A stretch of 64,000 nt of DNA from Bugula neritina (Eukaryota; Animalia; Bryozoa), in assembly GCA_964035545.1 (NCBI GenBank), contig OZ037773.1:1083751-1147750 (forward strand), written 5' to 3'. Below are positions 6,531 through 38,100 of the stretch, piece after piece; the first letter of the stretch is position 1; every line of letters begins with the position of its first letter. Position numbers and translations under genes: made by a program. The notes beneath the pieces are model-generated. The model did not search any database. It saw only the letters and a program-made list of their open reading frames with translations, and was not told the DNA's origin.

Positions 6531-6702
6531 AAACTAAATGTATTTTCAATGTGTCTGTTGGAGCACATCAGTTGTAACTGCAAGAGTGATTATTATTAAA
6601 TTATTATTGTTAGCTACTTTATCAGCAATACTCTGTTATAATTTAAATAGTAATGCTATAGCTCAATCACAATTGTATGTGTTAAATGAGTAAATATTAT
6701 TG

Positions 6703-9934: not shown

Positions 9935-11012
9935 CTAGAGTCCTTGTTGGGCACGCCTGTGCTTGGCTTGGCATGTACGCAGTTTCCGTTTCATACGGCA
10001 TACGGATCCCTTTAGCTGGAAGAGTCCTGTTGTAGTGTTAAGTAGATCCGGTGCCAGCTGGGTGAATTCTTCTTGTAATCGTAGGAGGCGTTCTTCTACC
10101 GTGGCTAGGCGGACTGGGTCTGGGGACGGTGTCCGTCTGCGGCGCACGGGTGGGCTGGGGGACCTGGTTCGTCTCTTCGTCGGGGTAGGGGAGATCTCTC
10201 CTTCTTCTGGATGTGTAATTTCCTCTGGGGTGTATGTAATTTGAGGGCGGTCAGACACCAACGGGGATTGTTGGCGGGCGTTGTCTAACACACGTTGGAA
10301 CCCCGAGGACAGAACGGCTAACAGCATGGCCTTCTTCACCAGAGGTCGTATAAGTGTGAGGAACTCCGGGTATAACTTAGCGTCGACCACGTAGTTTTCT
10401 CCAGGGAAACAGCCCGTCGCTCGATGTCTGGTGACGGGGTAGGGATATACATCATTGTACCCGCAGGGGCAGAATGTTAGTAGGAGATGAGCATTGACGT
10501 GTAGTTTAAGGGAGCGGTGAGAGGCACAATCTTCACCACAGATCTGGCATCTCGTCCGTCCTCTGGACCCCCAGGCCGTTTCTATTTCTTCTTCTGTTTG
10601 TGGAGACACTCACCGCCAACGGCGGCGTAGTGGCTCAGGCCGGTCACCACTAGCATACTCCTCCGGATACGGAGCGGGAAGTGTTCTATCCCGTGCCCTG
10701 GTTGTAGCGGGTCGAGTGTAATCTGAAAAAGTTTCAACAGCGTTAGTACAGTACACTGCCGTGTTGTCAGCTTGAATAGCTTGGCAACTCCTAATTCAGT
10801 TACCTCGTAGAGATTTATGGTAGTGAATAGTCAGATAGAACACGTATTGCAATGAGATTATAACAATCTCTAAGTCAAACTGAGTTCTTACTACGGTATT
10901 TCACTAACCTATCTCCAGCTCGATTGACTCAGTGAGTCAGAGCTGAGCGATGCAATCTAGTTTCGTATTAAGATATAGTTAACTCACCCCACGATCTGTT
11001 GTCGTAAGACAT
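9935..11012 (-). pseudogene. Element A accessory ORF3: exons 11012-10988 and 10722-9935, ~270 aa zinc-finger/coiled-coil protein; one TGG>TGA at 10612-10610
   Basis: MSYDNRSW G|gtgagt...TACTAAC(10748-10742)...tttttcag|AT TAC in frame; CQIC-x12-HVNAH, CPC-x12-H-x4-C, KRRTRSPSPPVRRRRTPSP, heptad Leu repeat. Confidence 0.8.
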
Positions 11013-11036
11013 ACTGAATGTGTGAAATGGTTTGAA

Positions 11037-14000
11037 CTACTGCTTAGAAACACGTCTACTCCTGACTGCATCAGCGTATGAAAAGATCGAGCAACGTGGT
11101 TGGGGTGCGTGATTAAGACTTTGTGCACCCGGCGGATGAATTTTGTTTCTATTTCCGCCGATACAAAAGTTGATATTTCCGTGGTGTTGACAACTCCCAC
11201 ATTTGCTCGATACTTTTCTCGTACGGTTTTCCCCTAGACTTTCATACGCGCCGCTTTTAACGCAGTCGCATATGAAGTCCTTCAAGCATGCGGGGGGTTG
11301 CCTCGTACGCTGTCCCCTTTCTAGGGGGGGTGACACGCTTGCCGGTTCGTTAGTAGGGGCCTCTAATGGCGTCTCTACTTCACCGTTAGCGGTCACCTCT
11401 TCTTGTTCTCCGGATGGAGCCCCTCCCTCCGTGGGGGTTTGCACTTCCGGAACCGGTTCGGTTTCTGGAAGTGATGGAATTAGACTTGGCGGTGGCGGAC
11501 ACGCTTCTGTTGATAAAAGCTGCTGCTCCTCCCTCACCAAGTTTTCTTCCCGCGGTATGACCACTTCGTATTCAGGTCCATGCCGCCGTCGCCCGCGCGT
11601 TGTTGTCTGCCTCCTGGGCTCTAACAGCAGGGGGGCTTCTCCCACTCCGTCGGGGCTAGCCCAATACGGTTTCAAGCGAGACTCATTCTGGATAGACACC
11701 TGTCCTGAGCGCTCAATCTTGTACGTATGATTGGGCATAGCCTCGACGACCACGTAGGGGCCTACGAACTTAGGCTTCAGTTTATCAGCCTGTCCGCGAC
11801 GCCTACGGTAATTGACCATCCACACCTTATCTCCCATTTGATAGAGGGGTGGTTTATCGGAATCTTCGTGCCGCACCTTCCACTGCTGTTGGCGCAGTAT
11901 ATCGTGTGCGGCCTTCATCCGTTCCACTAGTTCACTGGCATACTCGTGAACCGAGTTATCTTGCTCTGGAACGTGATAGGTGAGATGGTCAGGGACACGA
12001 GTCTCTCTCCCGAGCATCAAGAGGTTTGGGGTCTCACCAGTACCGGTGTGTGGGGTGCTACGGTATGCACGCATGACTTGCGGCAACACCGTATCCCATT
12101 CCTCTTGACCTCGTCCAAGGAGGAGACTCCGGAGTGCATCACCTAGCATCCGGTTGTTGCGCTCCACCACCCCGTTACCTTGAGGGTGGTAGGGGGTGGT
12201 CCTGCTCTGATTTACTCCCCAGAGGTGACAAAGGTCGCTCATCAGTTGAGACTGGAATTGAGCGCCTTGATCAGAGTGTATCTGTTCGGGGAGCCCAAAA
12301 TAACAGAATACATGTTGGTCTAGTGCCCTGGCCACTGTTGGGGCTGATGCATCTGGGATAGCCAGAGCATCCGCCCACCTAGTAAAGTGGTCGGTTAGTA
12401 CTAGGATCCAATTATTACCTCTGGGGGTCAGGGGCATGGGTCCGACCAGGTCTACAGCGACTACTTGCCAAGGCCTACCAGCATATAGCCTCCGCCGTCC
12501 TGCTTCACCAGGGGGGCGGCTGTGCTTACTGGCCTGGCAGATCTCACACTGTTTGACTCTGAGCCGGACATCACGCTCCATTTGCGGCCAATACCACCGG
12601 AGTCGTAATTTGGAGATCACTCTCTTGACCCCTGCGTGGGCCTGTTTGTGAGTATCCCAAATCAACTCACGGCGGATGGCCGTGGGGCAGACTACCCTCT
12701 TCCTTTCCGGGTGTCTGCCGCTGGCAGCTAGAGAGATGGTTAGTAACCCATCCTGCCCGATCCGCAGCGAGTCCCAACGCTGACAGTATAGCCGGAACTC
12801 GGCGCATCCCTGTCGTATGCGTTCCTCGCTGGGTCGCCGCCCTTCCCTTTTGGCCCGGTATATGTCTGCCACGACTCCAGGCAGCTCTTCTTGGAGCTTC
12901 TTCAGCTCTCAAACATTACCGGCCAGTACAGGGTTGGCGCGGAGGTTTTGTACATCCTCCAGGGACTCATCAACTCTTTGCCTGAGTTGACCTTGGTCCC
13001 AGTCAAACGGTGCTCCGTGGTGAGCCAGCGTCTCCAACTCGCATCGCGGGGGACCTCCATCCCTCCTCTCGATGTTGAGACACTGTTTGCAACCTCCATC
13101 AGGTCGGCGACTCAAACCATCCGCATTGCTGTGTCTCTTGCCCGGTCGATGTTCGATCCGGTATGAGAATTCAGCTAGGATTTCGAGCCACCAGGCGACC
13201 TGACTAGAGGGCTCTGCTCTCTTGCACAACCAGATCAGCAAGGCATGATCCGTACGCAGCCGGAACTTCCTGCCGTATAGGTATGGTCTGAAGTGCTTCA
13301 CTGACTTGATTACTGCCAGCAGCTCCTTGCGGGTAGTGCAGTAGTTTCGTTCAGCGGGTGAGAGAGACTTGCTGTAGTAGGCTACTACTACTTCTCAGCC
13401 TTCCTGCACTTGTGACAGCACAGCGCCAACATTTTGGTCACTGGCGTCCGTGTCGAGGATGTACTCCAGAGTGGGGTCTGGGTAGGCCAAGATGGGCGCC
13501 GTTAGTAGGCAGCCCTTGAGGCGGTCGAACGCTTCTTGTTCGACTGGGGTCCACTGCCACGTCACTCCCTTTGCGGTGAGCCGGTTTAACGGCTGTGCTA
13601 TGCCCGCAAAGTCTGGTATGTATTGTCTGTAATACCCTACCAGCCCCAAGAAAGCCCGGAGTCCGGTCAAGTCTTGAGGGGTGACCCAGTCTTCTATTGC
13701 TCGTACCTTCTCGGGATCCGTTGCCACGCCATTTCGACCGACAACGTGCCCCAGGTACTTAACCTCTGGCTGCAATAGAGCGCACTTGAAAGGCTTGAGC
13801 TTAAGACCGGCACCTCGGAGTCTCTCAAAGACCTCCTGCAGACGACTGACATGTGTCTCGAAGTCTGGGGAGATCACGATGACATCATCGAGGTAAATCA
13901 GCAGTGTCTTCCAATGGAGCCCGCTGAGGACTTGCTCCATCAGCCTCTGGAAGGTGGCTGGGGCAGAAGTCAACCCGAAGGGCAGCACCTTCCACTTCCA

Positions 14001-15608
14001 CAAACCGTCCCGTGTGATAAACGCCGCTTTCTCCTGGGCGTCGGGACTCAGAGGAACTTGCCAATAGCCGCTTAGCAAGTCTAACGTACTGAAGTACTTG
14101 CTGCCGGCTAGGGCGTCCAATGACTCGTCAATACGAGGTAGAGGGTAGGCGTCCTGTATGGTTACGCTATTGAGTTTGCGGTAATCCACACAGAACCGCC
14201 AACTGCCGTCTTTCTTCCGGACCAGTACGACTGGCGAGCTCCACGCACTATGGGCGGGCTCTATCAGTCCCCGGTCCAGAAGATCCCGTACTTGTCGGCT
14301 AACCTCTTTCTCTTTCTCCGGCCCCAGCCTGCGTGTGGGTTGCCGGACAGGGACTGTCCCTGCAGTCAGCGGTATTTCGTGTCTGACAATTCCAGTCAGT
14401 CCCTCGTCATGCTCTCCGCTGCTAAACACATCACCGTAGTCGCGTAGTAACTTAGCCATAACTTGGCATTCTCTGTCACTCGCGCAGCTGCTACAGGCTG
14501 TGTCATACAACTCCCGGAGATGTGCGGGGAATGCCCCTCGCCCTTGAGTAGGGCATTGAGGGAGCGCCTCTGTTGCATCACCCAGCGACGGGCCTACGTC
14601 TTTCTCTTGAACAGAGTGAAAACGGCCCAGCATCGACCCTGCCGGAAGCTTGATAGGCTCGGTAAAGGGGTTGACCCACTGCACTAAGATCTCCCCTTGC
14701 TCAGTCAGCTGATTCAGACTGCTGGCAAGTTGGATCCTTTCGTGCGCGCCTTCAACCACCCCTAGTCCAGAGATCCGGCTATTATTCACCCTGCAGTGAA
14801 TGGTAGCCCGGGAGCGGCCTGGTATGATACGGTTGCGTACCACTTGCACACCTCCCACTAAGGGGCGGCCGAACTTGTCGACGCAGGCGAGTTCCCGCCT
14901 GGACATCATCGTTGCAGATCTGCTAAAATCTATGTGACATCCGTGCCGTTTTAGGAACGGCATCCCGAGGATAGCATCCTCCTTGAGCTGACTGACTATG
15001 AAGGTCTCTTGGATCGTTTGATCACGGACTCGTCCCGTCAGCTCAATTATACCATAGAAGGGAAGGCACGACCCGTCAGCTAGGGTGCCGTATTCCCCTT
15101 CGTATGATTCCATCTCACCCCTGACCCAAGCACTGAGGGTGTCGAAGAGTTGGCGGCTTAAGAGGTTTGTGGTACAGCCCGAATCAATGAGGAAAGTAAC
15201 AGCTTTGCCTTCCAGTTTACCGGGCAAGAAATAGCTGTTCCCATGAGGCTGCACCTGAACTCTCTCTTCAGGCCTTACTCTCGCAGGGAGTACCTCCCTC
15301 GCTTTGGGTCGCGGAGGAGGTCTCTTGGGGCGGTGGTAGGTAGGCCTCGGGGGTGCCGAGGCTAGATTCTCGGCTACCTTTGTGGGCTCCCATCCAGATT
15401 CTTGGACTTGTAGCCCTGTGAATCTGTTATGAAGGGGCATAGAAAAGGCAGCCGCGGGGCGAGGCCCCTTGCTGGTCCGTCGTGGCTGTTGCCACTGTTG
15501 GTGGCCAGTACGCGGTACCCGTCTGGGTGACCTGCGTTTCTTCTTCTCTGGGGGTTTCATCGTCGGCCCGCAAGAGGTGGGAACATCTGCGGGCCGCGGT
15601 AGTTTAAC
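11037..15608 (-). pseudogene. pol: Element A pol (protease, RT, RNase H, integrase), interrupted by two CGA>TGA stops (13395-13397, 12909-12911)
   Basis: FLIDSG, YLDD, DTDAS..RTDH, HHCC, VDLVGP..SDQG..VERNN, GPY motif. Confidence 0.95.
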
Positions 15609-16510
15609 CCCTGATTTAGGAAGGGACAGTATCGGCGATAATGCCCTTGATTTCCGCACTCCCAGCAAAAACTGACTGTTTCTCCCTGTGGCGGCGCCGG
15701 TGGCCGCATGGGCTCAGGGGCGGTGCTCACTGGGGTTTGTGGTGTCAGTGTTGCTATCAGCTTGGCTAGCATGTCTGTCAGCTGAGTGACTTTCGATGCC
15801 GTCGCCAACTGGGACACGGCAGCCGCGGTGGGTGTTTCCTCCCCTTGTCCCGCGGCCGTGTCTGCGCGGTCTATCTCCACTTGACGGGAGCTTCCGCGAC
15901 TTTTATGCATTTGATTAGCTAGGAGGTAAGCTTCCCCCTCAGTCAGAGCATCCTCAACGGTGGTGACTCCCCTAGCTAGAAACTGGTGGTGGAGACCCAG
16001 ATCGTCGACAGATGCAATGAAAGCGTCGAGGGTATACCTCTCGCGGTTGACTGGGGGCAAGTCGCTGTACGCGATCTGTGCCAGCTTCATGACCGCGGCG
16101 GCATGCTCCCGCAGCGAGGTGCGGGAATCACGCCGCAACCTCTGTAATCGGGCCCTGGCATCTGTAGCAGAGAGGCCGAAGCGGGCCCGCAGAGAAGCAA
16201 AGATATTATCAATGTCTACGCCCAGCCCATAAGGCTTGGCTTTGTCCATCAATGCCATTCTAAGCTTCAGCAATGCCACCCTAGGGGGCCACTGGGCGAC
16301 GTCCATCACGTCGCTAAACTCTTGGATAAATTGTTCCACCTCTTCTTCACCCGTGAAGGTGGGCGCCTTTAACCTGTAGCGGTCCTCAGCTAGTTCTCGC
16401 GGAACCCTTCGCTCTTCTACTACATGGTTAACAGGCATTGTCTCTACAGCATTGTCTCTACGCTCACCTTCTATTGCCGGTGGTTGAGTTCCAGCATTTT
16501 CAGTCTCCAT
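15557..16510 (-). CDS. gag: Element A Gag, 317 aa, single CCHC knuckle
   Basis: ATG just after the PBS; CWECGNQGHYRRYC; overlaps pol in the -1 frame. Confidence 0.93.
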   Translation of the reverse strand: METENAGTQPPAIEGERRDNAVETMPVNHVVEERRVPRELAEDRYRLKAPTFTGEEEVEQFIQEFSDVMDVAQWPPRVALLKLRMALMDKAKPYGLGVDIDNIFASLRARFGLSATDARARLQRLRRDSRTSLREHAAAVMKLAQIAYSDLPPVNRERYTLDAFIASVDDLGLHHQFLARGVTTVEDALTEGEAYLLANQMHKSRGSSRQVEIDRADTAAGQGEETPTAAAVSQLATASKVTQLTDMLAKLIATLTPQTPVSTAPEPMRPPAPPQGETVSFCWECGNQGHYRRYCPFLNQGLNYRGPQMFPPLAGRR

Positions 16511-16522
16511 CTTGGATGCACT

Positions 16523-16540
16523 ATCCCACTGCTGCCACCA
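16523..16540 (-). promoter_or_regulatory. Primer-binding site of A (tRNA-Leu)
   Basis: TGGTGGCAGCAGTGGGAT, 1 nt from LTR end; complementary to the 3' end of metazoan tRNA-Leu(AAG/TAG) ATCCCACCGCTGCCACCA. Confidence 0.9.
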
Positions 16541-16959
16541 CTGTTATGTTTTTCAGATTTAGGGTTGATGTGCTATCCAGAGAGTCTATTTATTTGCTAT
16601 AGAACTGCACCAGGATAAGTTGAGTGAACGAGTATATTTTACACACAATTATACATTATAAAAACGATACATTATATTCAAACAAGTTACACATCTAATC
16701 TATTTCACACTCTAGCTTCGACTGAGTTAACAGCGGGAAACTACACTTGCTGCTAACTATCAACTACGCTAATTGGCTATTCATTGTTCCGGGTCAATTA
16801 CGCGACCTTACATGTTGTGCTGCTGGTAGTTCCACGAACCACCACATTATAGTGTCTAAAATATATACTCGTTCACTCGACTTATCCTAGTGCAGTTCTA
16901 TAGCAAGTAATTAGACTCTCTGGATTGCATATCAACCCTAATTCTGAAAATAATAACAG

Positions 16960-16977
16960 TGGTGGCAGCGGTGGGAT
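16960..16977 (+). promoter_or_regulatory. Primer-binding site of B (tRNA-Leu)
   Basis: TGGTGGCAGCGGTGGGAT immediately after the 5' LTR. Confidence 0.9.
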
Positions 16978-16989
16978 AGTGCATCCAAG

Positions 16990-17943
16990 ATGGAGACTGA
17001 AAATGCTGGAACGCAACCACCGGCAGTAGAAGGTGAGCATAGAGACAATGCTGTAGAGACAATGCCTGTTAACCATGTAGTAGAAGAGCGAAGGGTTCCG
17101 TGAGAACTAACTGAAGACCGCTACCGGTTAAAGGCGCCCACCTTCACGGGCGAAGAGGAGGTGGAACAATTTATCCAAGAGTTTAACGACGTAATGGACG
17201 TCGCCCAGTGGCCCCCTAGGGTGGCCCTGCTGAAGCTTAGAATGGCATTGATGGACAAAGCCAAGCCTTATGGGCTGGGCGTAGACATTGATAATATCTT
17301 TGCTTCTCTGCGGGCCCGCTTCGGCCTCTCTGCTACAGATGCCAGGGCCCGATTGCAGAGGTTGCGGCGTGATCCCCGCACCCCGCTGCGGGAGCACGCC
17401 GCCGCGGTCATGAAGCTGGCACAGATCGCATACAGCGACTTGCCCCCAGTCAACCGCGAGAGGTATACCCTCGACGCTTTCATAGCATCTGTCGACGATT
17501 TGGGTCTCCACCACCAGTTTCTAGCTAGGGGAGTCACCACCGTTGAAGATGCTCTGACTGAGGGGGAAGCTTACCTCCTAGCTAATCAAATGCATAAAAG
17601 TCGCGGGAGCTCCCGTCAAGTGGAGGTAGACCGCGCGGACACGGCCGCGGGACAAGGGGAGGAAACCTCCGCCACGGCCGCCGTGTCCCAGCTGGCGACG
17701 GCATCGAAAGTCACTAAACTGACAGACATGCTGGCTAAACTGATAGCAACACTGACACCCCAAACCCCAGTAGGTACCGCCACTGAGCCCGTACGGCCAC
17801 CAGCGCCGCCACAGGGAGAAACAGTCAGTTTTTGCTGGGAATGCGGAAATCAAGGACATTTCCGCCGATACTGTCCCTTCCTAAATCAGAGGTTAAACTA
17901 CCGCGGCCCGCAGATGTTCCCACCTCCTGCGGGCCGACGATGA
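16990..17943 (+). pseudogene. gag: Element B gag with premature TGA at 17101-17103
   Basis: Colinear with A gag; CGA in A, TGA in B. Confidence 0.93.
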
Positions 17944-20900
17944 AACTTCCAGGGAAGAAGAAACGCAGGTCACCCAGACGGGTACCGCGTACTGGTAACC
18001 AACAGTGGCAACAGCCACGACGGACCAGCAAGGGGCTCCGCCCCGCCGCTACCTTTTCCATGCCCCTTCACAACAGATTCGCAGGGCTACAAGCCCAAGA
18101 ATCTGGATGGGAGCCCACAAAGGTAGCCGGGAATCTAGCCTCGGCACCCCCGAGGCCTACTTACCACTGTCCCAAGAGACCTCCTTCGCGACCCAAAGCG
18201 AGGGAGGTACTCCCTGCGAGAGTAAGGCCTGAAGGGAGAGTTCAGGTGCAGCCCCATGGGAACAGCTATTTCTTACCCGGTAAACTGGAGGGCAAACCTG
18301 TTACTTTCCTCATTGATTCGGGCTGTACCACGAACCTCTTAAGCCGCCAACTCTTCGACACCCTCAGTGCTAGGGTCAGGGGCGAGATGGAATCATACGA
18401 GGGGGAGTATGGCACCCTAGCTGACGGGTCGTGCTTTCCCTTCTATGGTATAATTGAGCTGACGGGACGAGTCCGTGATCAAACGATCCAAGAGACGTTC
18501 ATCGTCAGTCAGCTCAAGGAGGACGCCATCCTCGGGATGCCATTCTTAAAAAGGCACGGATGTCACATCGATTTTAGTAATTCTGCGATGATGATGTCCG
18601 GCGAGAACTCGCCTGCGTCGACAAGTTCGGCCGCCCTTTAGTGGGAGGTCTGCAAGTGGTACGCAACCGTACCATACCCGGCCACTCCCGGGCTACCATT
18701 CACTGCAGGGTGAACAATAGCCGGATCTTTGGACTCGGGGTAGTTGAAGGCGCGCACGAAAAGATCCAACTTGCCAGCAGTCTGAATCAGCTGACTGAGC
18801 AAGGGGAGATCTTAGTGCAGTGCGTCAACCCCTTTACCGAGTCTGTCAAGCTTCCGGCTGGGTCGATGCTGGGCCGTTTTCACTCTGTTCAGGAGGAGGA
18901 CGTAGGCCCGTCGCTGGGTGATGCGACGGAGGCACTCCCTCGGTGCCCTACTCAAGGGCGAGGGACAGTCCCAGCACATCTCCGGGAGTTGTATGACACA
19001 GCCTGTAGCGGGTGCGCGAGTAACAAAGAATGCCAAGCTATGGCGAAGTTACTACGCAACTACAGTGATGTGTTCAGCAGCGGAGATCATGACGTGGGAC
19101 TGACTGGAATTGTCAGACACGAAATACCGCTGACTGCAGGGACTGTCCCTGTCCGGCAGCCCACACGCAGGCTGAGGCCGGAGAAAGAAAAGGAGGTTAG
19201 CCGACAAGTACGGGATCTTCTGGACCGGGGACTGATAGAGCCCGCCCATAGTGCGTGGAGCTCGCCGGTCGTACTGGTCCGGAAGAAAGACGGCAGTTGG
19301 CGGTTCTGTGTGGATTACCGCAAACTCAATAGCGTAACCATACAGGACGCCTACCTTCTACCTCGTATTGACGAGTCATTGGACGCCCTAGCCGGCAGCA
19401 AGTACTTCAGTACGTTAGACTTGCTGAGTGGCTATTGGCAAGTCCCTCTGAGTCCAGACGCCCAGGAGAAGGCGGCGTTTATCACACGGGACGGTTTGTG
19501 GAAGTGGAAGGTGTTGCCTTTCGGGTTGACCTCCGCCCCAGCCACCTTCCAGAGGCTGATGGAGCAAGTCCTCAGCGGGCTCTATTGGAAGACACTGCTG
19601 ATTTACCTCGATGATGTCATCGTGATCTCCCCAGACTTCGAGACGCATGTCAGTCGTCTGCAGGAGGTCTTTGAGAGGCTCCGAGGTGCCGGTCTTAAGC
19701 TCAAACCTTCTAAGTGCGCTCTAATGCAGCCAGAGGTTAAGTACCTGGGGCACGTTGTCGGTCGAAACGGCGTGGCAACGGATCCCGAGAAGGTACGGGC
19801 AATAGAAGACTGGGTCACCCCCCAAGACTTGACCGGACTCCGGGCTTTCTTGGGGCTGGTAGGGTATTACAGGCAATACATACCAGACTTTGCGGGCATA
19901 GCACAGCCGTTAAATCGGCTCACCGCAAAGGGAGTGACGTGGCAGTGGACCCCAGTCGAACAAGGAGCGTTCGACCGCCTCAAGGGCTGCCTACTAACGG
20001 CGCCCATCTTGGCCTACCCAGACCCCACTCTGGAGTACATCCTTGACACTGACGCCAGTGACCAAAATGTTGGCGCTGTGCTGTCACAAGTGCAGGAAGG
20101 CCGAGAAGTAGTAGTAGCCTACTACAGCAAATCTCTCTCTCCCACTGAACGAAATTACTGCACTACCCGCAAGGAGTTGCTGGCAGTAATCAAGTCAGTG
20201 AAGCACTTCAGACCATACCTATATGGCAGGAAGTTCCGGCTGCGTACGGATCATGCCTTGCTGATCTGGTTGTGCAAGAGAGCAGAGCCCTCTAGTCAGG
20301 TCGCCTGGTGGCTCGAAATCCTAGCTGAATTCTCATACCGGATCGAACATCGACCGGGCAAGAGACACAGCAATGCGGATGGTTTGAGTCGCCGACCTGA
20401 TGGAGGTTGCAAACAGTGTCTCAACATCGAGAGGAGGGATGGAGGTCCCCCGCGATGCGAGTTGGAGACGCTGGCTCACCACGGAGCACCAATTGACTGG
20501 GACCAGGGTCAACTCAGACAGGAGGTTGATGAGTCCCCGGAGGTTGTACAAAACCTTCGCGCCAACCCTGTACTGGCCGATAATGTCCGAGAGCTGAAGA
20601 AGCTCCAAGAAGAGCTGCCTGGAGTCGTGGCAGACATATATCGGGCCAAAAGGGAAGGGCGACGACCCAGCGAGAAACGCACACGACAGGGATGCGCCGA
20701 GTTCCGGCTATACTGTCTGCGTTGGGACTCGCTGCGGATCGGGCAGGATGGGTTACTAACCATCTCTCTAGCCGCCAGCGGCAGACACCCGGAGAGGAAG
20801 AGGGTAGTCTGCCCCACTGCCATCCGCCGTGAGTTGATTTGGGATGCTCACAAACAGGCCCACGCAGGGGTCAAGAGAGTGATATCCACATTACGGCTCC

Positions 20901-22440
20901 GGTGGTATTGGCCACAAATGGAGCGTGACGTCCGACTCAGAGTCAAACAGTGTGAGATCTGCCAGGCCAGTAAGCATAGCCGTCCCCCTGGTGAAGCAGG
21001 ACGGCGGAGGCTATATGCTGGAAGGCCCTGGCAAGTAGTCGCTGTAGAGCTGGTCGGACCCATGCCCCTGACCCCCAGAGGCAGTTGGATCTTACTACTA
21101 ACCGACCACTTTACTAGGTGGGCGGATGCTCTGGCTATCCCAGATGCGTCAGCCCCAACAGTGGCCAGGGCACTAGACCAACATGTATTCTGTTATTTTG
21201 GTCTCCCCGAACAGATACACTCTGATCAAGGCGCTCAATTCAAGTCTCAACTGATGAGCGACCTTTGCCACCTCTGGGGAGTAAATCAGAGCCGGACCAC
21301 CCCCTACCACCCTCAAGGTAACGGGGTGGTGGAGCGCAACAACCGGATGCTAGGTGATGCGCTCCGGAGTCTCCTCCTTGGACGAGGCCAAGAGGAGTGG
21401 GATACGGTGTTGCCGCAAGTCATGCGTGCACACCGTAGCACCCCACACACCAGTACTGGTGAGACCCCAAACCTCTTGATGCTCGGGAGAGAGACTCGTG
21501 TCCCTGACCATCTTACCTACCACGTTCCAGAGCAAGACAACTCGGTTCACGAGTATGCCAGTGAACTAGTGGAACGGATGAAGGCCGCACACGATATACT
21601 GCGCGAACAGCAGTGGAAGGTGCGGCACGAAGATTCCGATGAACCACCTCTCTACCAAATGGGAGATAAGGTGTGGATGGTCAATTACCGTAGGCGTCGC
21701 GGACAGGCTGACAAACTAAAGCCTAAGTTCGTAGGACCCTACGTGATCGTCGAGGCTATGCCCAATCATACATACAAGATTGAGCGCTCAGGACAGGTGT
21801 CTATCCAGAATGAGTCTCGCTTGAAACCGTATTGAGCTAGCCCCGACACAGTGGGAGAAGACCCCCCGTTGTTGGAGCCCAGGAGGCAGACAACAACACG
21901 CGGGCAATGGCGGCATGGACCTGAATACGAAGTGGTCATACCGCGAGAAGAAAACTTGGTGAGAGAGGAGCGACAGCTTTCGCCACCGCCAAGTCTAATT
22001 CCATCACTTCCGGAAACCGAGCCGGTTCCGGAAGTGCAAACCCCCACGGAGGGAGGGGCTCCATCCGGAGAACAAGAAGAGGTGACCGCTAACGGTGAAG
22101 TAGAGACGCCATTAGAGGCCCCTACTAATGAACCGGCGAGCGTGTCACCCCCCCTAGAAAGGGGGCAGCGTACGAGGCAACCCCCGCATACTTGAAGGAC
22201 TTCGTATGCGACTGCGTTAGAAGCGGCGCGTATGAAAGTCTAGGGGAAAACCGTACGAGAAAAGTATCGAGCAAATGTGGGAGTTGTCAACACCACGAAA
22301 ATATCAACTTTTGTATCGGCGGAAATAGAAACAAAATTCATCCACCGGGTGCACAAAGTCTTAATCACGCACCCCAACCACGTTGCTCGATCTTTTCATA
22401 CGCTGATGCAGTCAGGAGTAGACGTATTTCTAAGCAGTAG
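17892..22440 (+). pseudogene. pol: Element B pol; frameshift near 18600, TGA at 21833-21835, first catalytic integrase Asp replaced (VAVEL vs VAVDL)
   Basis: ORFs 17832-18641, 18641-21835, 21851-22195 and 22192-22440 tile the A pol sequence. Confidence 0.95.
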
Positions 22441-22464
22441 TTCAAACCATTTCACACATTCAGT

Positions 22465-23536
22465 ATGTCTTACGACAACAGATCGTGGGGTGAGTTAACT
22501 ATATCTTAATATGGAAACTAGATTGCATCGCTCAGCTCCGACTCACTGAGTCAATCGAGCTGGAGATAGGTTAGTGAAATACCGTAGTAAGAACTCAGTT
22601 TGACTTAGAGATTTTTATAATCTCATTGCAATACGTGTTCTATCTGACTATTCACTACCATAAATCTCTACGAGGTAACTGAATGAGGAGTTGCCATGCT
22701 ATTCAAGCTGACAACACGGCAGTGTACTGTATTAACACTGTTGAATTTTTTTCAGTTTACACTCGACCCGCTACAACCAGGGTACGGGTTAGAGCACTTC
22801 CCGCTCCGCATCCTAAGGAGTATGCCAATGGTGACCGACCCGAGCCACTACGCCGCCGTTGGCGGTGGGTGTCTCCAGAACAGAGGAGGAAATAGAAACG
22901 GCCTGGGGGTCCAGAGGACGGACGCGATGCCAGATTTGTGGCGAAGAATGTGCCTCTCACCGCTCCTTGAAGCTACATGTCAACGCCCATCTCTTACTCA
23001 CATTCTGTCCCTGCGGATACAATGATGTCTACCCCTACCCCGTCACCAGACATCGAGCGACGAGCTGTTTCTCTGGAGAGAATTACGTAGTGGATGCCCA
23101 GCTCTATCCGGAATTCCTCACTCTGATACGGCCCCTAGTAAAGAAGGCAATGTTGTTAGCCGTCCTGACCTCGGGTTTCCAACGCGTATTAGACTATGCC
23201 AGGCAACAATCCCCATTGGTATCTGACCGCCCTCAGATTGTGTACACCCCCGAGGAGTTTGCTTATCCAGAAGAAGGAGAGGTCTCCCCTATCCCGATGA
23301 AGAGACGAACCAGGTCTCCCAGTCCCCCTCTGTGCCGCAGACGGACACCGTCCCCAGACCTTGCTCGCCTGGCCACAGTAGAGGAACGCCTCCTCCGACT
23401 ACAAGAAGAATTTACCCAGTTAGCACCGGATCTGCTTAATACTACGACGGGGCTCTTCCAACTAAAAGGATCAGTAGGCCGGATTAAACGGAAACTACGT
23501 ACATGCCAAGCCAAGCACCGGCGTGCCCAACATTGA
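22465..23536 (+). pseudogene. Element B accessory ORF3: exons 22465-22489 and 22756-23536; 1-nt deletion near 22878
   Basis: MSYDNRSW G|gtgagt..TATTAAC..ttttcag|TT TAC; same zinc-finger and coiled-coil motifs as A. Confidence 0.8.
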
Positions 23537-24712
23537 CTCTAGTTCTGCTACCCGGAATAATCCACAACTTCGTCCTCTTGGGAGACCCACGAATGTCATG
23601 TAAATGCTTGACTGCTCGACAGGCCTGCTCCTTGTCCAATACCACAGCTAGCCGGTATTCCTCCTCTAAAGCTGGTCAATTGTATGTAACTTGCTGTTAT
23701 AATGACTCTGTCTGTTATTATGTATCTTTATATGTGTTATGTATTATCTTTGGTCTACTGATGTATGTGGTTAATGATGAACGTTTTTTATATCAGAAAG
23801 AGGGCTTTCTGCTGGTGGGGGCGGTGTGGTGGCTCGTGGAGCTACCAGCAGCACAACATGTAGGGTCCCGTAATTGACCCGGAACAATGGATAGCCAATT
23901 AGCGTGTTTAATAGTTAGCAGCAATTATAGTTTCCCGCTGCTAACTCAGTCGAAGTTAGAGTGCTGAATAGACTAGATGTGTAAATTGTCAGATGTATTT
24001 GTATCGTTTTTATAATGTATTATTGTGTCTAAAATATATACTCGTTCACTCGACTTATCCTGGTGCAGTTCTATAGCAAGTAATTAGACTCTCTGGATTG
24101 CATATCAACCCTAATTCTGAAAATCATAACAATTGACTATATAACACGTGGACGCGTGTTTTACGTACTCACTACACCGCTCCCCCCCCCCAGCAGGAAG
24201 CCTAAATTTCTGATAATACAAATACAACTAAAAAGATACAACAATAAAAAAATATAAAACGGAAAGGGAGAGCTTGTAGGGTATGTACATAAAAAAACAC
24301 ATATATATATATATAAATATAAACAGTATGAACTAGTCTTGCCTTGTTTAACTGCGTGCATTAGTAGCTAGCAATAATTGTTCAGCCGAGTATAAGAGAG
24401 ATTGTACGCATTCCGATTGTCAGCTATTATGCCAAGCGTATAGAGAGTAAGCCACGAGGAGTTATCCTTTCCATAATAACATAAACTAAAATCCCTTACA
24501 TTCTCCTCACCTATCGAAAGGTACAATCTCTAACTAATACACAATTGAAAAAGAATATAACACATGATAATAAAACAGTATAATATAAAATAAGTATCCT
24601 ACTCGTTAGTCGCAAGAGTTCCGACACACACAATCTATTCACATCACCTCCACAAAGAATAAGTACCAGTTGCTACCAGTCAGAGGGGTATGGGGAAGTC
24701 GGGGTCGTAAGG

Positions 24713-25222
24713 TTACTTTGCTGGTCGTCCCTCGAGTCTCGTATTTAGTTTAGTCACTTCAGCAGCCACCTGTTCCTGTTCTTTACAGAGACGAGCCATC
24801 GTCGCTGTAGCTTCTTTACATCCGTCAACAGGGACTGGTCGGGGCTAGCGTTTCGGTTAATCGGGCAACGGGTACTCTTCCTCTTCTACGGTCAGAGGGG
24901 GACGGTGGCTGTGTGACGGTAGGATCTATCTTCTAGTTCCTCAACCTTGAACGGTCTTCCCTCCAACAGAATGCCAGAAACTGTTGAAGGGGTTTTCACC
25001 TGGTCAGTACGACACCTCGACTGAGTCTCGCAATCTACTAACCACTGATTATTATGAAATCACGCGGTCGACTGCCTCACTCAAGTCGTCAGTGAAATCA
25101 CCTGACTTGGGAAACCAGCTTTATCGTTATGATAAAGCGAGACTGATTTAAAGCTACCAGCTTGAATTCTACTCAAATAGTAGAATTATATTAGTAGACT
25201 TACCATAAGGCAGCCACGACAT
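24713..25222 (-). pseudogene. Element C short accessory ORF3: exons 25222-25204 and 24980-24713; no zinc fingers, two stops and one frameshift
   Basis: MSWLPY G|gtaagt..TACTGAC..ccccttcaacag|; C-terminus PDQSLLTDVKKLQRR/MARLCKEQEQVAAEVTKLNTRLE matches E. Confidence 0.65.
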
Positions 25223-27299
25223 TAGTCTGCTGCCCACTTAGGCCTCGTAGTACGCCAGCCTGCCGGGTACGTGCGTGCAAGTTGGCAGTTGAAATAGAAA
25301 AGAACGCTCTTCGCAGTGAAAGTAATTACATAATACTTCCTTCACTAGCGAGCTGGCTTCGCTCTTTCCATTACCTCGCCCCCCAGACTTGTTTTGTGCT
25401 GGTTGACAGGTTATAGTATAGTATGCATGTCAACCAAGTCACACCAGAAGTCTTGCAAATAAGATGGTGGCGCCCTGGTACGTTGGCTACGTTCCAACGG
25501 TACCCGGGAATTTGCTGCGACTGGTGACTCTTCTGCACGGGTGGTGTCGCCAGTACGAGGGGGGTCCACCAGTACGGGTGGTCCTCCCCTAGCTGCCTCT
25601 TCCTCATGATTTTGAGGAATTTCCACCTCATCCGGGGCGATGGGCCTGTCGACCGGCTCCACAGGTGGTGGGGCCGGCTCCGACAGGTCTTCTGGTGTCT
25701 CGGCCTCCTCCTCCTGGGGTGGAGGTGGCCGGGGCGGGTCGGGCGGCGCGTCGGCCGCCCCGTCCTGATCTTGCAGTGTCTCCTCAATCTCTTTATACGC
25801 CATGCCTCGCCCCCTCATAGGGGGGCGTCTAGCGGGCTCTAAGAAAGGAGGTGCTTGACCTGCTGCATCAGGACTCGCCCAGTGAGGTTTCAGCCGTGCC
25901 TCGTTCTGGACCGACACTTGTCCAGACCGTTCCACTTTATAGGTGTGATTGGCCATCACCTCAATCACGCAGTAGGGACCCACAAACTGCGACTGCAACT
26001 TGGCTGCCTGTCCACGTCGCCGGCGATGACTGGTCTTCCAGACCCAGTCTCCCGCTTTGCAAAAAGGGGGGTCGTCAGAGTCGCCACTTCTGACCTGCCA
26101 TTGCTGCTCACGTAGCACCTCGTGAGCCGTCCTCATGCGTTTTACGAGCTCGTCCACGTAATCGTAGACGCTGCTCTTGGGAGCTGGAACATAATAGGTT
26201 ACGTGCTCAGGAATCCTGGTTTCTCTACCCAGCAAGAGAAAATTAGGGGTCTCCAGTGTACTGGAGTGAGGGGTACTACGGTAAGCTCGCATGATCTGCG
26301 GCAGCACCATGTCCCACTCTTCCTGGCTCCTACCGATGAGCAGGCTTCTCAGTGAGTCCCCTAGCATTCGGTTGTTCCGCTCCACAACCCCGTTCCCTTG
26401 GGGGTGATACGGGGTCATCCGACTCTGGTTTACCCCCACATTTTACAGAGATCGCTCATAAGCTGCAACTGAAACTGGGCGCCTTGATCAGAGTGTATCT
26501 GCTCCGGCAAGCCAAAATAGCAGAATACCTGCTGATCCAAGGCTCTGGCCACCGAGGGGGCCGACGCATCTGGAATAGCCAGTGCATCAGCCCACCGCGT
26601 GAAATGGTCAGTTAGTACCAGTATCCAGTTATTACCTCTCGCTGTTGTGGGCATGGGGCCTACCAGATCTACAGCGACTACTTGCCACGGACGACCGGCA
26701 TGGAGGCGACGCCTCCCTGCGGTCTCAGTGGGGCGGCCATGCTCGCTAGCTTGGCATACCTTGCACTTCCGTACCCGGAGTCGGACATCCCGGGTCATAC
26801 CGGGCCAAAACCACTGGGGTTGAAGACACCTAGTCACCCGGCTAGCTCCCGCGTGAGCTTGCTTATGGGTGTCCCAGATCAACTCTCGCCTCAGAGCGGA
26901 CAGGCAGACTACCCTCTCTCGTTCACTGCGATTGGTGCCGGCTGCCAACGTTATCGTTAGCAGCCCATCGCTGTCAAACCGGAGGGAGTCCCAGCGGTCA
27001 CAGAAGTACTTAAACTCTGCACTCTTCACTCGCTGTTCGGCCTCACTCGGCCGCCGTCCCTCCTTCATGGCCCGGACTAGGTCAGCTACCACCCCTGGTA
27101 GCGTTGCCTGGAGCCGACACAGCTCCCTGACGTTCCTGAGCAGCATAGGGTTTGCGTGAAGGTTGTTAACAGCTTCATTAGGGGATTCGGACCGGAGTTG
27201 TCCTTCTTCCCAGCTGTATACACCCGCTTTCCCCAACTGTGCTTCAACGTCCGAGCGAGGGGGTTCACCATCCCTGTCTCAATGTTCTGGCACTGCTTA

Positions 27300-28054
27300 C
27301 ACAGGATAGTTAAGGGCAACCTTTTAGTTCTAGCTGCTATGCTGATGATGCAGTGTTATCATATAAGAAATCAGTCCCAGTAAAATAAAATTTTACCTAA
27401 TTGTGCTGAAATCAAAATTTAAAAACTATGTTGTAGATAGCTTTATTCCTCAGCGCGTATTTTTTGGAATTTTTAATTTTCCATTTTTTGGCTAAGCTAC
27501 AGACGAAAAACTATCCATTTTCTCCTTTTTTTAGCTGAAAAAACATCATGTCAGTCCCAGTAAAAGATCTCAGCAGGAAAACATAATATCTGAAAAAAGA
27601 AAACACTGTTGGAATTCTGAGATATTTCTGCAGCGGGGTTTTTGTAATGCTTCTAATAGCTTTTATAGATTTGCTATAAATTAGTGATTTATACGCTGAA
27701 AATGAGATAATTTTTTTTTACTAATAAGCACTGCTCATCACTTCGCGCTTCAGTGAACGCGTAGAGATGAAAAGATATTGGCTTGTCCATTACTAATTAC
27801 AGACCTGCTGACCTACAAGCTAGTGAATAGCTTGGTGTGTAATTCATTCATAGAGTAGCCACAATGGAATGTTGATATATAATGCAGCCCTAATTGAGCT
27901 TGCTGTTTATTGGTCATAATCTAATATCAGGCTAAACATACACAGGCAGGCAACACGCATGCCACCCACAGAACAATATTATAGAAGAAACCTAGACTAC
28001 ATTGTGAGCTAAATTTATGATATTCTTAGTAAGGATGCCCTTAACTATCCTGTG
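27300..28054. mobile_element. Non-autonomous TIR DNA transposon (755 bp) inserted at the end of the RNase H region of C; CACTA/EnSpm-like or TA-targeting
   Basis: TIR CACAGGATAGTTAAGGGCA (19 bp perfect), 2-bp TSD TA, pol sequence rejoins on removal. Confidence 0.9.
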
Positions 28055-31000: not shown

Positions 31001-31984
31001 TCCCATAGGGTTTAGCCGGCCCTGTCAGACATAACCGCAGCTGGATCAGAGTAACCCTATTCGGCCATCTGCAGATAGCCGCCACATCACTAAACTCAGT
31101 GATGAATTGCTCCACATCTTCTTCCCCTGAGAAGATGGGAGCCCGCAAGTGATACCTGTCCATAGGCAGCGCTGGGCCGCCTATGTGATCCTCCTCTACT
31201 GCTGCCGGTTCCTGTCCGGGCGTGTCGTCCTTGTCGACCATCTTCTTTCTACTCCCTGGCTAGGAGCATTTGTATTAAGTGGGATCCCACCGCTGCCACC
31301 ACTGTAGTGAATTTCGCAGTTCACTATATTATGTGGGTCGACTTAAACAAAGCTACTACACCAGGTTATTTACGTTATAATAAGTTTATTATTTACAAGA
31401 TACAAGAATTGAACTACTGCTAACATGAATTGAACGATTACATAATAAATGAGCCTTTATGCACAACTACTCTAAGCGAAGTCCCAAGCTGCTCTGCCCG
31501 GCTAGCTACTCAGCGCTCTTCCACTACGAGTAGCTAGCTCCACCTGCTATCAATTAGCATGTCAGTCCTGATTGGCTAGCGTTAGTGGTGCCACTGTCGA
31601 CTGTAAGATACTGTCGGATAACAGTCGACGCCGAGTTGTCCCTGTCGATGCTAATTAACTCCATAACCATAAGCATAACGCTAGCATTTTTTTCTGAGCA
31701 CACTAACTGTCAGTGCAAACCATCTACACCTCCTATTGAGCTAATTGGCTATTCTGCGTACGGTTGTTGGTTCTATTGAACTAGTCTTGCCTTGTTTAAC
31801 TGCGTGCATTAGTAGCTAGCAATAATTGTCCAGCCGAGTATAAGAGAGATTGTACGCATTCCAATTGTCAGCTATTATGCCAAGCGTATAGAGAGTAAGC
31901 CACGAGGAGTTATCCTTTCGATAATAACATAAACTAAAATCCCTTACACTAGGATAATCTTTATTTTGGTTCGGTTAATTTCTT

Positions 31985-32360: not shown

Positions 32361-32635
32361 TTCATAACAACATGCAGGCACGCTAGAAAGCTCCTCCTAG
32401 AGAATGTGACTTGACATTTCAATCTCTTAAACACTTTTATTCCATCTATTTATGTATTTTAATCCATTGGCTTTATAGCTTTTACACACAGTTCTCATAC
32501 ATATATATATAGTATGTTTTTATTCTTGTTACATTACATCTTAACATTTTATCTGAAGATTGTGTACATTCAATGCACATGAAACTAGTAGTAATAAAGT
32601 GTTTTAAATCAAATTTTATCGTTCATTACTTTTAT
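32361..32635 (+). mobile_element. Penelope-like element 3' end (ORF C-terminus plus pLTR region)
   Basis: FITTCRHARKLLLENVT* resembles the terminal CRH motif of PLE ORFs; followed by a hammerhead motif and (TA)n. Confidence 0.65.
32543..32603 (+). ncRNA. Minimal type-I hammerhead ribozyme (Penelope type)
   Basis: CTGAAGA, stem II TGTGTA/TGCACA, GAAA, palindromic ACTAGT, GTA; flanks AACATTTTAT/ATAAAGTGTT can pair. Confidence 0.7.
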
Positions 32636-32636
32636 T

Positions 32637-32857
<221 letters not shown>

Positions 32858-32889
32858 CTCAATATTATAAGGAAAATAATTAATAATAA

Positions 32890-33144
32890 TTAGGCTTTCC
32901 TAAATATTTTCCAACTTTTATTGTGTTTAATGTTTTTGTTAGTTAGTTGCCAAATGTATTTGCTAAGTTCTGTTTGATTAATTGCTTTTTCCTTGTTTTT
33001 AAAGGATGAGTTGTGGTTCGCGTATTTTATTTTGAACGGTCCATCACTCAAGCCAATGTATGTTGCAGGCTCGTTTTCGGTAGTTTCTACAGTTGCTTGG
33101 TATATTACTCTGCTCTCCTGACAGTTTCCTTTTTCTGTGGACAA
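32890..33144 (-). mobile_element. Penelope-like GIY-YIG endonuclease fragment
   Basis: C..VIYQATV..TYIGLS..FK.KYANH..SF..TELSKYIW.L..WKI. Confidence 0.8.
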
Positions 33145-35142: not shown

Positions 35143-38100
35143 TGTGGTGGCTCGTGGAGCTGCCAGCAGCGAAATACACAGGGTCACGCTATTGACCCGG
35201 AACAATGGACAGCCAATTAGCGATGCTGATAGTTAGTAGCAGTAGTTAGTTTCGCGCTACTAGTTCAGTTGTGAATAGTGCAGTAGATTAAATAGACGTG
35301 TGAATTTCTGAATTTTTCTGTATCGTTTTTATTATGTATCCTTGTACTTAAAATATACTCTTAGTGACTCGATTTATCCTGGTGAAGTTTTCTAGCAATA
35401 AATAGACTCTCTTGATTGCACATCGACCCAAATTCTGAAAATTACAACAATGGTGGCAGCAGTGGGATAGTGTACATCAACGATGGAGACTGAAAATGCT
35501 AGAATGCAACCACCCCCAGTAGAAGGTGAGCGTAGAAATGATGTTATTCCTGTGAATCATGTGGGAGAAGAGGCTTATCGATATCGCTTGAAAGCTCCCA
35601 CCTTTACTGGGTCAGAAGATGTCGAACAGTTTATACAGGAGTTTAGAGAAGTAATGGATATTGCCCAATGGCCACAGAGAGTAGGCCTTATCCAGTTGCG
35701 GAGAGCGTTGACGGAGCAAGCCAAGCCGTACGGAATAGGAACGGATGTAGACGGGATATTGGCTGCGTTGCGGGCCCGTTTTGGTATCTCCGCAGAGGAC
35801 GCCAGGGCCCGTTTACAGAGGTTGTGCCGCGCCTCACGGGTCTCATTGCAAGAGCATGCCGCGACGGTGAAAAAGCTGGCGCAGATTGCGTATGGTGACC
35901 TATCAGCACAACACCAAGAGCGTTACACCTACGACGCTTTCGTCCAGTCACATAAACTACAAGCTAAAGGAATAACCACGGTAGAGGATGCCCTAAAGGC
36001 CGGAGAGGCTTACTTGTTGGCTACCCAAATGCATCGAGAACAAGGGAACCCGCCGCCGGTTAGAGTCAATGCTGCCAGAGCTACGGCAGCCCCCGAAGCT
36101 CCCTCCTTAGAAGCAGAAGTAGACCGTATGGTAGAGATGTTGGGACAGCTGGTAGCTATTCTTGCCAGCGCTGGTCCCGGTCAGGCCTCACGGTTGTCCC
36201 CAGCACCTGTGGGGCCGGGCTTGAGTAGTGTTGGTCAGGACCACAGACAGCAAGGATGATCCCAGGACCAGGGGACGTTAAACTGTCACGGCCCGCGGAC
36301 GCCCTTCCGCCCCTCGTGCCGAAACTGAAGGAACATGGTGAGACACGCCGCCACCGGTCTGTACAGACACGACGGTATGCTCCCCCGGAGTGGCAGGTAC
36401 CACGTAGGACTAGCAGACCCGCACAGCGGCCGAGTACCTTCTCCCTGCCACTCGCTAACCAGTTCCACCGGTTACCTCGGGAGGAGGAGTCTGCCACTGA
36501 ATTAGAGCCGGAAGGCCCAGTGAGGAGCTCCGAACCCCGCCGGCGCCAACGACGCCGCCGGAAACCCCATTAACCACGAGTAAACCCCAGCCGTCCTACC
36601 CAACCAAGACAACACATGCGGGGGGGGTGAAAGTACAACCACATGGAGATAGCTATTTCCTCCCCGGAAAGGTGACGGGTAAAGCCGTCACTTTCCTGCT
36701 AGACTCCGGCTGTACTACCAACCTTCTCAGTCGTAGGATCTTTGAGGCACTGCCCCGCCAGGACAGGGATAGAGTACGACCGTACACGGGAGAACATGGC
36801 ACCGTAGCAGACGGGTCGTGTATCCCCTTCTACGGTATTATCGAGCTCCCTGTGCATGTCCGAGACCAGGCTATACAGGAGACCTTTGTCATAAGCCAGC
36901 TGGAGGAAGATGCTATCCTCGGATAGCCCTTCTTGAAACAGCATCAATGCCGCATAGACTTTAGCAAGTCGGCAGTGCTGATGGGGGAGCGAGAACTCGC
37001 CTGTGTGGATAAGTTTGGGCGTCGTCTAGTGGGCGGTGTTCAGGTAGTTCGAACCTGCACTGTACCCGGGCGCTCGAGGGCTACTATCCACTGCCGAGTG
37101 AACAGCAACCGGATAGCTAGACCCGGGGTCGTTGAAGGCGCGCACAAAAAGATCCAACTCGCCAGCAGTTTAAACCAACTGACCGAGCGAGGGGAGATCT
37201 TAGTGCAGTGTGTCAACCCCTGTACCGAGCCCATCAAGCTCCCAGCTGGGTCTATGCTGGGCCGGTTCCACTCTGTCCAGGAGGAGGACGTGGGCCCGTC
37301 GCTGGGTGATGCGACGGAGGCACTCCCTCGGCGCCTTACTCAGGGGCGAGGGGCGGTCCCTACACACATCTGGGAGTTATATGAAACAGTTTGTGGTGAC
37401 TGCGCGAGCAACAAGGAACGCCAAGCTATGGCGAAGTTGCTACGCGACTACGGTGATGTGTTCGGCAGCGGAGATAATGACGTGGGACTGACTGGAGTTG
37501 TCAGACACAAAATACCGCTGACTGCAGGGACGGTCCCTATCCGGCAACCCACGCGCAGGCTGGGGCCGGAGAAGGAGAAGGAGGTTAGCCGACAAAGACA
37601 GGATCTTCTGGATCGCGGCCTCATAGAGCCCGCCCATAGTGCGTGGAGCTCGCCGGTCGTATTGGTCCGGAAGAAAGACGGCAGTTGGCGGTTCTGTGTG
37701 GATTACCGCAAACTCAATAGCGTAACCATACAGGACGCCTACCCTCTACCTCGTATTGACGAGTCATTGGACGCTCTAGCCGGCAGCAAGTACTTCAGTA
37801 CGTTAGACTTGTTGAGCGGTTACTGGCAAGTTCCTCTGAGTCCCGACGCCCAGGAGAAGGCAGCGTTTATCACACAGAACGGTTTGTGGAAGTGGAAGGT
37901 GCTGCCTTTCGGGTTAAATTCCGCCCACGCCACCTTCCAGAGGCTGATGGAGCAAGTCCTCAGCGGGCTCCATTGGAAGACACTGCTGATCTACCTCGAT
38001 GATGTCATCGTAATCTCTCCAGACTTCGAGACACATGTCAGTCGTCTGCGGGAGGTCTTCGAGAGACTCCGAGGTACCGGTCTTAAGCTCAAACCTTCCA

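Follow-up and report, generated by a model that had tools for sequence, protein, structure and literature searches.

A two-zinc accessory gene behind integrase in Ty3/Gypsy elements of the bryozoan Bugula neritina, with a predicted intron and internal promoter

LTR retrotransposons are taken to depend on their host for transcription, and self-encoded transactivators mark the complex retroviruses. In foamy viruses, Tas is a DNA-binding activator of the LTR and of an internal promoter (PMC12789967, partial text). The foamy virus tas/bet region has, as is predicted for the locus described here, a second promoter near the 3' end for a regulatory gene, but foamy viruses are retroviruses with an env gene. 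The one well-studied Gypsy regulator found, CERV of Cer1 from C. elegans, acts on RNA export. It resembles what is predicted here in its spliced mRNA, nuclear localisation, richness in Cys, leucine zipper and NLS, but its exons are common with gag and the protein has 517 aa, a G-protein-like domain and, as stated in the partial text, no homologue outside nematodes (PMC10309623). The CERV layout with gag-shared exons and H-M-G domains was not found in the present elements, in which exon 1 lies behind integrase and the fingers are of the C2H2 type. The Ty3/Gypsy-type elements Tor3b/4b of Oikopleura have, according to the partial text, an internal promoter that was mapped by RACE, lies in or after pol and serves a 3' gene, as predicted here, but this gene encodes a membrane env and is unspliced (PMC4402516). 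Non-env third ORFs between pol and the 3' LTR, the position also found here, are described in partial texts for bdelloids (ORF3s; PMC5408684) and, as additional ORFs, for the plant elements Grande, RIRE2 and Retand (PMC7264820). Unlike the gene described here, the bdelloid ORF3s encode a GDSL lipase, a DEDDy nuclease, or TM or coiled-coil proteins, and the plant ORFs are antisense; the word "zinc" is absent from the partial text of PMC5408684 and from those of two annelid surveys and a metazoan env survey. A zinc-finger third gene in an invertebrate Gypsy element was not found described in the literature covered, which also comprised partial texts of PMC13524379, PMC8556966, PMC12440569 and PMC11952523. 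The accessory gene described here represents a family of Ty3/Gypsy genes that is apparently undescribed, and an existing annotation as ORF3, for instance in Repbase, Dfam or GyDB, is possible.

Accessory gene copies in a nest of Ty3/Gypsy insertions

The window, a stretch of 64,000 nucleotides from contig OZ037773.1 of B. neritina (GCA_964035545.1), consists of AT-rich animal DNA. Self-comparison and LTR ends revealed five nested or clustered Ty3/Gypsy insertions, A to E, grouped within 41 kb, and the accessory gene or its remnant was found 3' of integrase in all five.

16846-9342, minus strand: element A, Ty3/Gypsy, LTRs identical at 303/305 positions, inserted in the 5' LTR of B
16851-24131, plus strand: element B, with gag, protease, RT, RNase H, integrase, accessory gene and 3' LTR (23824-24131)
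about 31949-24300, minus strand: element C, Ty3/Gypsy
35143-39213, plus strand: element D, internally deleted
39838-50272, plus strand: element E, Ty3/Gypsy, LTRs identical at 409/418 positions
22465-22489, plus strand: coding part of exon 1 of the B accessory gene, 8 codons and 1 nt, predicted
22490-22755, plus strand: predicted phase-1 intron of B, 266 nt
22756-23536, plus strand: exon 2 of B, with the two-zinc domain (about 22866-23200), a basic Pro/Ser linker and the coiled coil (about 23360-23530)
9935-11012, minus strand: accessory gene of A, with exon-1 coding part 11012-10988, predicted intron 10987-10723 and exon 2 10722-9935
48402-49615, plus strand: accessory gene of E, with exon-1 coding part 48402-48429, predicted intron 48430-48690 and exon 2 from 48691
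24713-25222, minus strand: remnant in C, with exon 1, predicted intron and coiled-coil tail present and the finger domain absent
38341-38591, plus strand: remnant in D, end of a gene of the third subfamily (70-85% identity to P0116), fused directly to a cut RT

By their domain order, TG...CA LTRs and target duplications the elements are Ty3/Gypsy (Metaviridae). Their primer site is, we presume, of the tRNA-Leu type. Pfam domains were found on B in the order Asp_protease_2, RVT_1, RT_RNaseH, Integrase_H2C2, rve and SH3_Tf2-1; since integrase follows RT, the Gmr1 order is excluded (PMC8220671, partial text). The 5' LTR of B is split by the insertion of A into pieces at 9142-9341 and 16851-16959 (197/200 and 105/108 identical). 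LTRs within the elements are 97-99% identical and the insertions are recent; 4-bp target duplications flank A, B, D and E, and the four sequences differ.

Further features of the nest were noted. As A lies in opposite orientation within its close relative B, 9142-24131 forms a 7.3-kb inverted repeat of 93% identity. The 5' LTR of C (31303-31949, minus strand) is chimera-like, its first part resembling the start of its own 3' LTR, which is shortened, and its last 300 nt the LTR of E (89-94%). In both C (27300-28050) and E (about 43500-46080) pol is interrupted by AT-rich insertions without long frames. A decayed integrase piece of a more distant Gypsy element, 65% to C/E, lies at 5000-6400 on the minus strand, and the accessory-gene profile had no match near it. 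Another repeat is present in two copies of 95% identity (6697-7251 and 50767-51321) with a short decayed frame that presumably resembles the end of a non-LTR reverse transcriptase. Host-gene exons with immunoglobulin-like domains (weak Ig_3 match in Pfam) were found at 1040-4306 on the minus strand, and the nest may lie in or beside this gene. Short tandem repeats at 58480-60180, 52800-53170 and 32560-32930 comprise a minisatellite of 30 nt (15-nt unit), another of 14 nt, and TA-rich simple sequence.

The accessory genes fall into three subfamilies that are 25-35% alike and hold the same position in the element. The copy in E represents the second, about 29% identical to A; an earlier note on this DNA had counted two families and had overlooked the third, of which the remnant in D (38341-38591) is part. 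Its proposed ATG-TCN starts at 11012 (A), 22465 (B), 48402 (E) and 25222 (C) were confirmed, as were exon-1 coding lengths of 25 (A), 25 (B), 28 (E) and 19 nt (C) and the phase-1 donors G|GTRAGT. Because the start sits in a micro-exon, ORF-based annotation misses the gene. The proposed introns of 265 (A), 266 (B), 261 (E) and 223 nt (C) have acceptors that open the conserved frame, but that of C was misplaced: position 24981/24980 was not matched, and alignment to E puts the acceptor at 24961/24960, 20 nt further on. A branch-point-like motif had also been described for A, B and C; E is without a consensus branch motif near its acceptor. Splicing said to be in frame each time is so at the junction itself, but every copy in the window is broken downstream and none gives an unbroken product. 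A has an in-frame stop (10612-10610) 36 codons past the acceptor, C has a stop 28 codons past it, B loses the frame near 22880 with a stop after 45 codons past the acceptor, and in E the frame is lost near 49390. Since the relatives P0001, P0002 and P0098 are unbroken across the stretches concerned, the breaks are a property of these window copies.

The predicted intron and internal promoter

The donor motif G|GTRAGT occurs 12 times in 128 kb (both strands). In B, C and E, whose sense strands measure 7.3, 7.8 and 10.4 kb, it is present once each, at the proposed donor; the sense strand of A carries the proposed donor and a second site that coincides with A's stop. A second intron at this site (A 10613) was considered and rejected, as the site is A's stop and P0001/P0002 read through it as coding. 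The introns have 36-42% GC and 3-12 stops per frame, and exon 2 has 53-55% GC. In contig pile-ups from runs X1, X2 and X4 (two samples, one study), five indels of 1-2 nt were found in the intron, and the listing has none in exon 1 or within 45 nt of the start of exon 2. Similarly, the intron holds 28 of the 40 substitution rows listed (42 in all), and none of those listed falls on the ATG, 22487-22502 or 22730-22755. A joint that skips the intron was not among the 15 of 18 contig joints listed, a result that is silent on expression. Twenty-one of 101 close homologues extend far enough upstream to cover the junction, and the junction motif was present in 19; in 18 of these, Ser/Leu is followed by Asp/Gly, as a phase-1 YAG would give, and two proteins were misplaced by the search pattern. 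In one subfamily a Met stands two codons before the acceptor and 12 of the 19 proteins start there, so that unspliced translation is possible. An unspliced start at ATG 22683 was rejected, this ATG being absent in A and changed in the X2/X4 contig. Taken from these sequence patterns, a phase-1 intron in the accessory gene is quite likely.

Upstream of the gene, the earlier note had missed a promoter-like motif that precedes each ATG: 73-90 nt before the ATG of A, B, C and E lie a pyrimidine initiator-like motif and a DPE-like motif. The register was set by the consensus positions of Inr and DPE.

22391-22425, plus strand: predicted internal core promoter of B, pyrimidine initiator/TCT-like, G at +24, DPE-like at +28 to +33
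11052-11086, minus strand: predicted internal core promoter of A, motif match
48311-48345, plus strand: predicted internal core promoter of E, 150 nt behind the pol stop
25269-25303, minus strand: predicted internal core promoter of C, motif match
23946-23979, plus strand: Inr and DPE in the 3' LTR of B, spacing equal to that of the internal motif
9264-9297, 9492-9525, 16692-16725, 35265-35298 and 39024-39057: other Inr-DPE sites in LTRs

In the upstream alignment of A/B, E and C, the pyrimidine motif and an ACGT motif stand 24 nt apart with spacers of unlike sequence. The G at +24 is kept at all four internal sites, and as it fills the third position in codons for different residues, its conservation is not explained by constraint on the protein. 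A pattern derived post hoc from these loci, which amount to two or three independent cases, matched four times in the 64 kb, once ahead of each ATG, and not at all in 100 shuffles. The standard Inr-DPE pattern, which is independent of the loci, matched seven times (3.0 expected on average by chance; seven or more in 5 of 100 shuffles). Six of the seven matches fall at a single homologous position of the A, B and D LTRs, with the same spacing as the internal motif. The LTR of E keeps the register and departs from the DPE consensus at +29 like E's internal site, a departure also seen at the internal site of C. Furthermore, depth in X2/X4 was about 620-660 over 22395-22424 vs about 47 at 22440-22454. 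A 35-nt block here has loose ends on either side and no listed change at +24 or +28 to +33; more diverged families in these runs align to B across just these 35 nt. The motif shared with the LTRs and the 35 nt kept in diverged families suggest an internal promoter, the foamy-virus layout, and we consider such a promoter before the accessory gene likely. In Drosophila, the TCT motif is not known to function together with a DPE. TRF2 serves both TCT and Inr-DPE promoters in Drosophila (PMC12549938, partial text).

The promoter motif might instead be the splice-acceptor region for an LTR-derived leader, but this reading finds no perfect donor upstream: the elements have no second perfect donor near the 5' end. 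Since this donor is missing and a promoter-like motif precedes the ATG, the earlier analogy to an errantivirus-type env expressed from spliced genomic RNA is probably wrong. A plant parallel is the additional ORF of Grande, whose product is reportedly nuclear and expressed from its own promoter. In A and B the motif lies inside the tail of the pol frame, and an out-of-frame ATG follows 14 nt after the predicted start; the pol frame of A/B is about 70 codons longer than that of E/C and crosses the predicted promoter (11037-11290, minus strand; 22132-22440, plus strand).

A constrained two-zinc protein family

The main frame of A and B differed by dN 0.052 and dS 0.60 over 218 codons, which excludes the possibility, raised before, of a captured exon without constraint (dN/dS 0.087). 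By part, dN/dS was 0.048 in the finger domain, 0.30 in the linker and 0.058 in the coil; the first 36 codons of exon 2 were uninformative (0.62, p 0.48). The accessory gene is real and under purifying selection.

The zinc motifs, VD block, basic tract, terminal helix and absence of a hydrophobic segment reported earlier were all present. Finger 1 is C-x2-C-x12-H-x3-H, with helix positions 2, 3 and 5 mostly R/K, and finger 2 is C-x-C-x12-H-x4/5-C without the standard linker; both lie within a larger domain of 110 residues in which W-x-S-x2-T and VD blocks are conserved. Among 108 aligned proteins, selected from 238 collected, zinc ligands 1-7 were kept in 104-108 rows and the eighth in 81, and other conserved columns were W49 and T54 (93 rows each), V124 (101) and D125 (97). 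AlphaFold predicted two zinc modules and one long helix, with a compact domain at residues 39-165 of P0001 (pLDDT 94.7, pTM 0.86) and a terminal helix of 59 residues. The order across homologues is acidic front, two-zinc domain, basic Pro/Ser linker and coiled coil. By rough custom scores for charge and heptads, in which fronts from a prokaryotic gene-finder may include intron read-through, the front was acidic in 36 of 43 and the part after the domain basic in 77 of 85 of the 108 aligned proteins. Acidic-hydrophobic patches were seen in 12/29 fronts vs 3/29 tails, a basic cluster in 56/85 tails and a heptad score above shuffles in 71/85 tails. The front of the A/B subfamily is the shortest and least acidic and lacks an acidic-hydrophobic patch (P0023, P0034, P0039, P0047).

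An env protein was ruled out: there is no membrane segment and neither a signal peptide nor an anchor, the highest 19-residue hydropathy was 1.51 (A), 0.76 (E) and 1.24 (P0001), exceeding 1.6 in 6/108 homologues, and no env family was matched in Pfam. A classical tandem C2H2 protein was rejected as well, because only finger 1 is C2H2 and the Pfam cut-off was not reached (A 13.7 bits vs 25.2); zf-C2H2 matched weakly in 8/108 members (best E 0.00013) and zf-C2H2_4 weakly in 10/108. Fold searches gave no match at E <= 0.001. In a wide fold search the whole model hit coiled coils only and the domain reached a best Z of 3.8, by which a new fold is not proven. Residues 22-80 of the domain model overlay the tandem fingers of Kaiso weakly and below significance (Z 3.7, rmsd 3.0, 57 aligned). 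Kaiso, SALL4 and HIC2 share the finger 1 pattern with weak sequence and fold overlay, but differ from the present protein with its non-C2H2 finger 2 and its larger 110-residue domain. ESM Atlas returned unnamed or C2H2 clusters only, and none of six queries was matched in PHROGs.

A word-based search found 97 close homologues among 1112 candidates, and searching 1.84 billion representatives by profile brought up 184 at E <= 0.001, 72 of them at <= 1e-10. This defines a family of about 180 clusters at 50% identity with a confidently predicted domain and no Pfam model. Of 30 clusters looked up, three carry an organism name, all bryozoan (Watersipora subatra XP_067940964.1 and XP_067944745.1; Bugula neritina KAF6040922.1). 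In P0221/P0242 the accessory domain and a protease, 38-51% identical to that of the window, are joined in a single frame. These proteins sit in the other half of the domain tree from the window elements (132 rows, close family thinned, unrooted; quick and weakly resolved), which suggests that the link between gene and element is old; an ancient capture and a later domestication may both have occurred, being compatible with the unrooted tree. Long fused forms were not found among 7980 candidates of 1023-2920 aa in a weak search, and scans of metagenome contigs, viral contigs and prokaryote genomes yielded no loci around homologues. Two bryozoan gene models share an extra front segment across genera, and P0100/P0240 and P0111 contain the domain twice. 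From their sequences, P0170, P0245, P0100/P0240 and P0111 are candidate domesticated genes.

Possible functions and exchange of the 3' module

As far as sequence can tell, the earlier view of a Ty3/Gypsy lineage with a non-env accessory gene under purifying selection and with the build of a nuclear regulator is supported. By analogy, we propose with a probability of roughly 0.45 that the accessory protein is a nuclear DNA-binding activator of the element's own transcription, similar to Tas. RNA polymerase II would start at the initiator/DPE-spaced motif 73-90 nt before the ATG, which would allow the protein to be made without an LTR transcript, and removal of the 260-nt intron would give a small spliced mRNA. 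The basic tract would then mediate nuclear entry and the coiled coil the formation of oligomers, the two packed zinc fingers would bind DNA and the acidic front would recruit the transcription machinery. LTR promoter output would thereby be raised, in an early-to-late switch like that of foamy-virus Tas. If true, complex regulation would have been reached outside Retroviridae by a second, convergent route, and a silenced copy could restart itself via its own promoter and a DNA-binding regulator. Homology to Tas was not found among PDB sequence, BFVD and PDB fold matches, a remote link being beyond the reach of such searches.

A Rev/CERV-like RNA factor, which would bind structured unspliced genomic RNA, possibly at the intron, and license its nuclear export, is unlikely. 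It has a precedent in the Ty3/Gypsy element Cer1, which needs the spliced, Cys-rich, oligomeric nuclear CERV for export (PMC10309623, partial text), and the genomic RNA of the present elements has to retain an intron with a perfect donor. Strong folds were obtained for the introns of E (z -7.1) and C (z -5.5), whose joint fold surpasses 200/200 column shuffles in energy, but the nine double changes in that fold were reached by 33/200 shuffles, the introns of A and B fold weakly (z -2.5 and -1.9) without a fold peak, and other parts of the elements often show z of -4 to -7. Basic helices of the C2H2 type are able to bind RNA. The acidic front suits an activator better. The intron as a proven Rev-response-like element was dropped on the shuffle and elsewhere-in-element controls, and Rfam and tRNA scans gave no match. 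Quite unlikely is also an anti-silencing factor modelled on VANC, which would bind the element DNA sequence-specifically and strip or block repressive host chromatin without direct recruitment of polymerase. Fast turnover and the exchange of the gene together with the 3' end, between elements whose gag-pol remains similar, fit an arms race, and an LTR-independent promoter would allow expression from a silenced copy, but selection on the domain between A and B is strongly purifying, not diversifying, and arrays of a short target motif were not seen in the window elements.

That the protein targets integration or tethers chromatin, linking integrase to host DNA or chromatin, appears improbable. 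The DNA-binding build with a coiled coil, the position of A within B's LTR and the five insertions in 41 kb would agree with such a role; however, Gypsy targeting modules are usually fused to integrase, the four target duplications are unlike in sequence, and a separate promoter would be unneeded. Equally improbable is a captured host zinc-finger gene carried as cargo, host-acting or useless, with promoter and intron as host relics. Bryozoan gene models with the domain exist, and two of them share the extra front segment, as host genes would. This reading is opposed by purifying selection within recent insertions (LTRs 97-99% identical), by three subfamilies only 25-35% alike at the same position and by the protease-linked copy in the other half of the tree; moreover, a useless intron would tend to be lost by reverse transcription.

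The 3' module as a whole appears to be exchanged between elements. From gag to 22800 the identity of A and B is 90-100%, in non-coding parts too, and from there into the LTR it is 81-88%, so that finger domain, 3' UTR and LTR diverge jointly; dS is 0.60 in the accessory gene vs 0.11-0.15 in gag-pol. Identity between E and C is 91-96% in integrase and drops to about 65% at promoter and intron, and D is 76-85% like A/B in LTR and pol, yet carries a different accessory subfamily. From these patterns, the finger domain moves together with the 3' end from which U3 is templated. Fold z in gag-pol and the post-integrase region (17000-22400, 47100-48700) is often -3 to -7 vs dinucleotide shuffles and in the accessory exon about 0 to +4, not better than shuffles. 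RNA structure could account for some of the dS contrast, since folding exceeds shuffles in gag-pol but not in exon 2.

With the Tas-like activator as the preferred reading, it is possible, though less likely than not, that an old, env-less invertebrate Gypsy lineage independently evolved the foamy-virus circuit, with an activator that was swapped together with the LTR and gave rise to bryozoan host genes. In B, U3 and the internal promoter region were found to share no response element; in A, E and C they share only matches of 7-10 nt. A TCGA-core word that is absent from B's U3 has one occurrence close to the internal promoter and another in the intron. It is repeated in the U3 of E (49851-50087, five in 237 nt) and of C (31450-31949, four in 500 nt), and these repeats are possible response elements.
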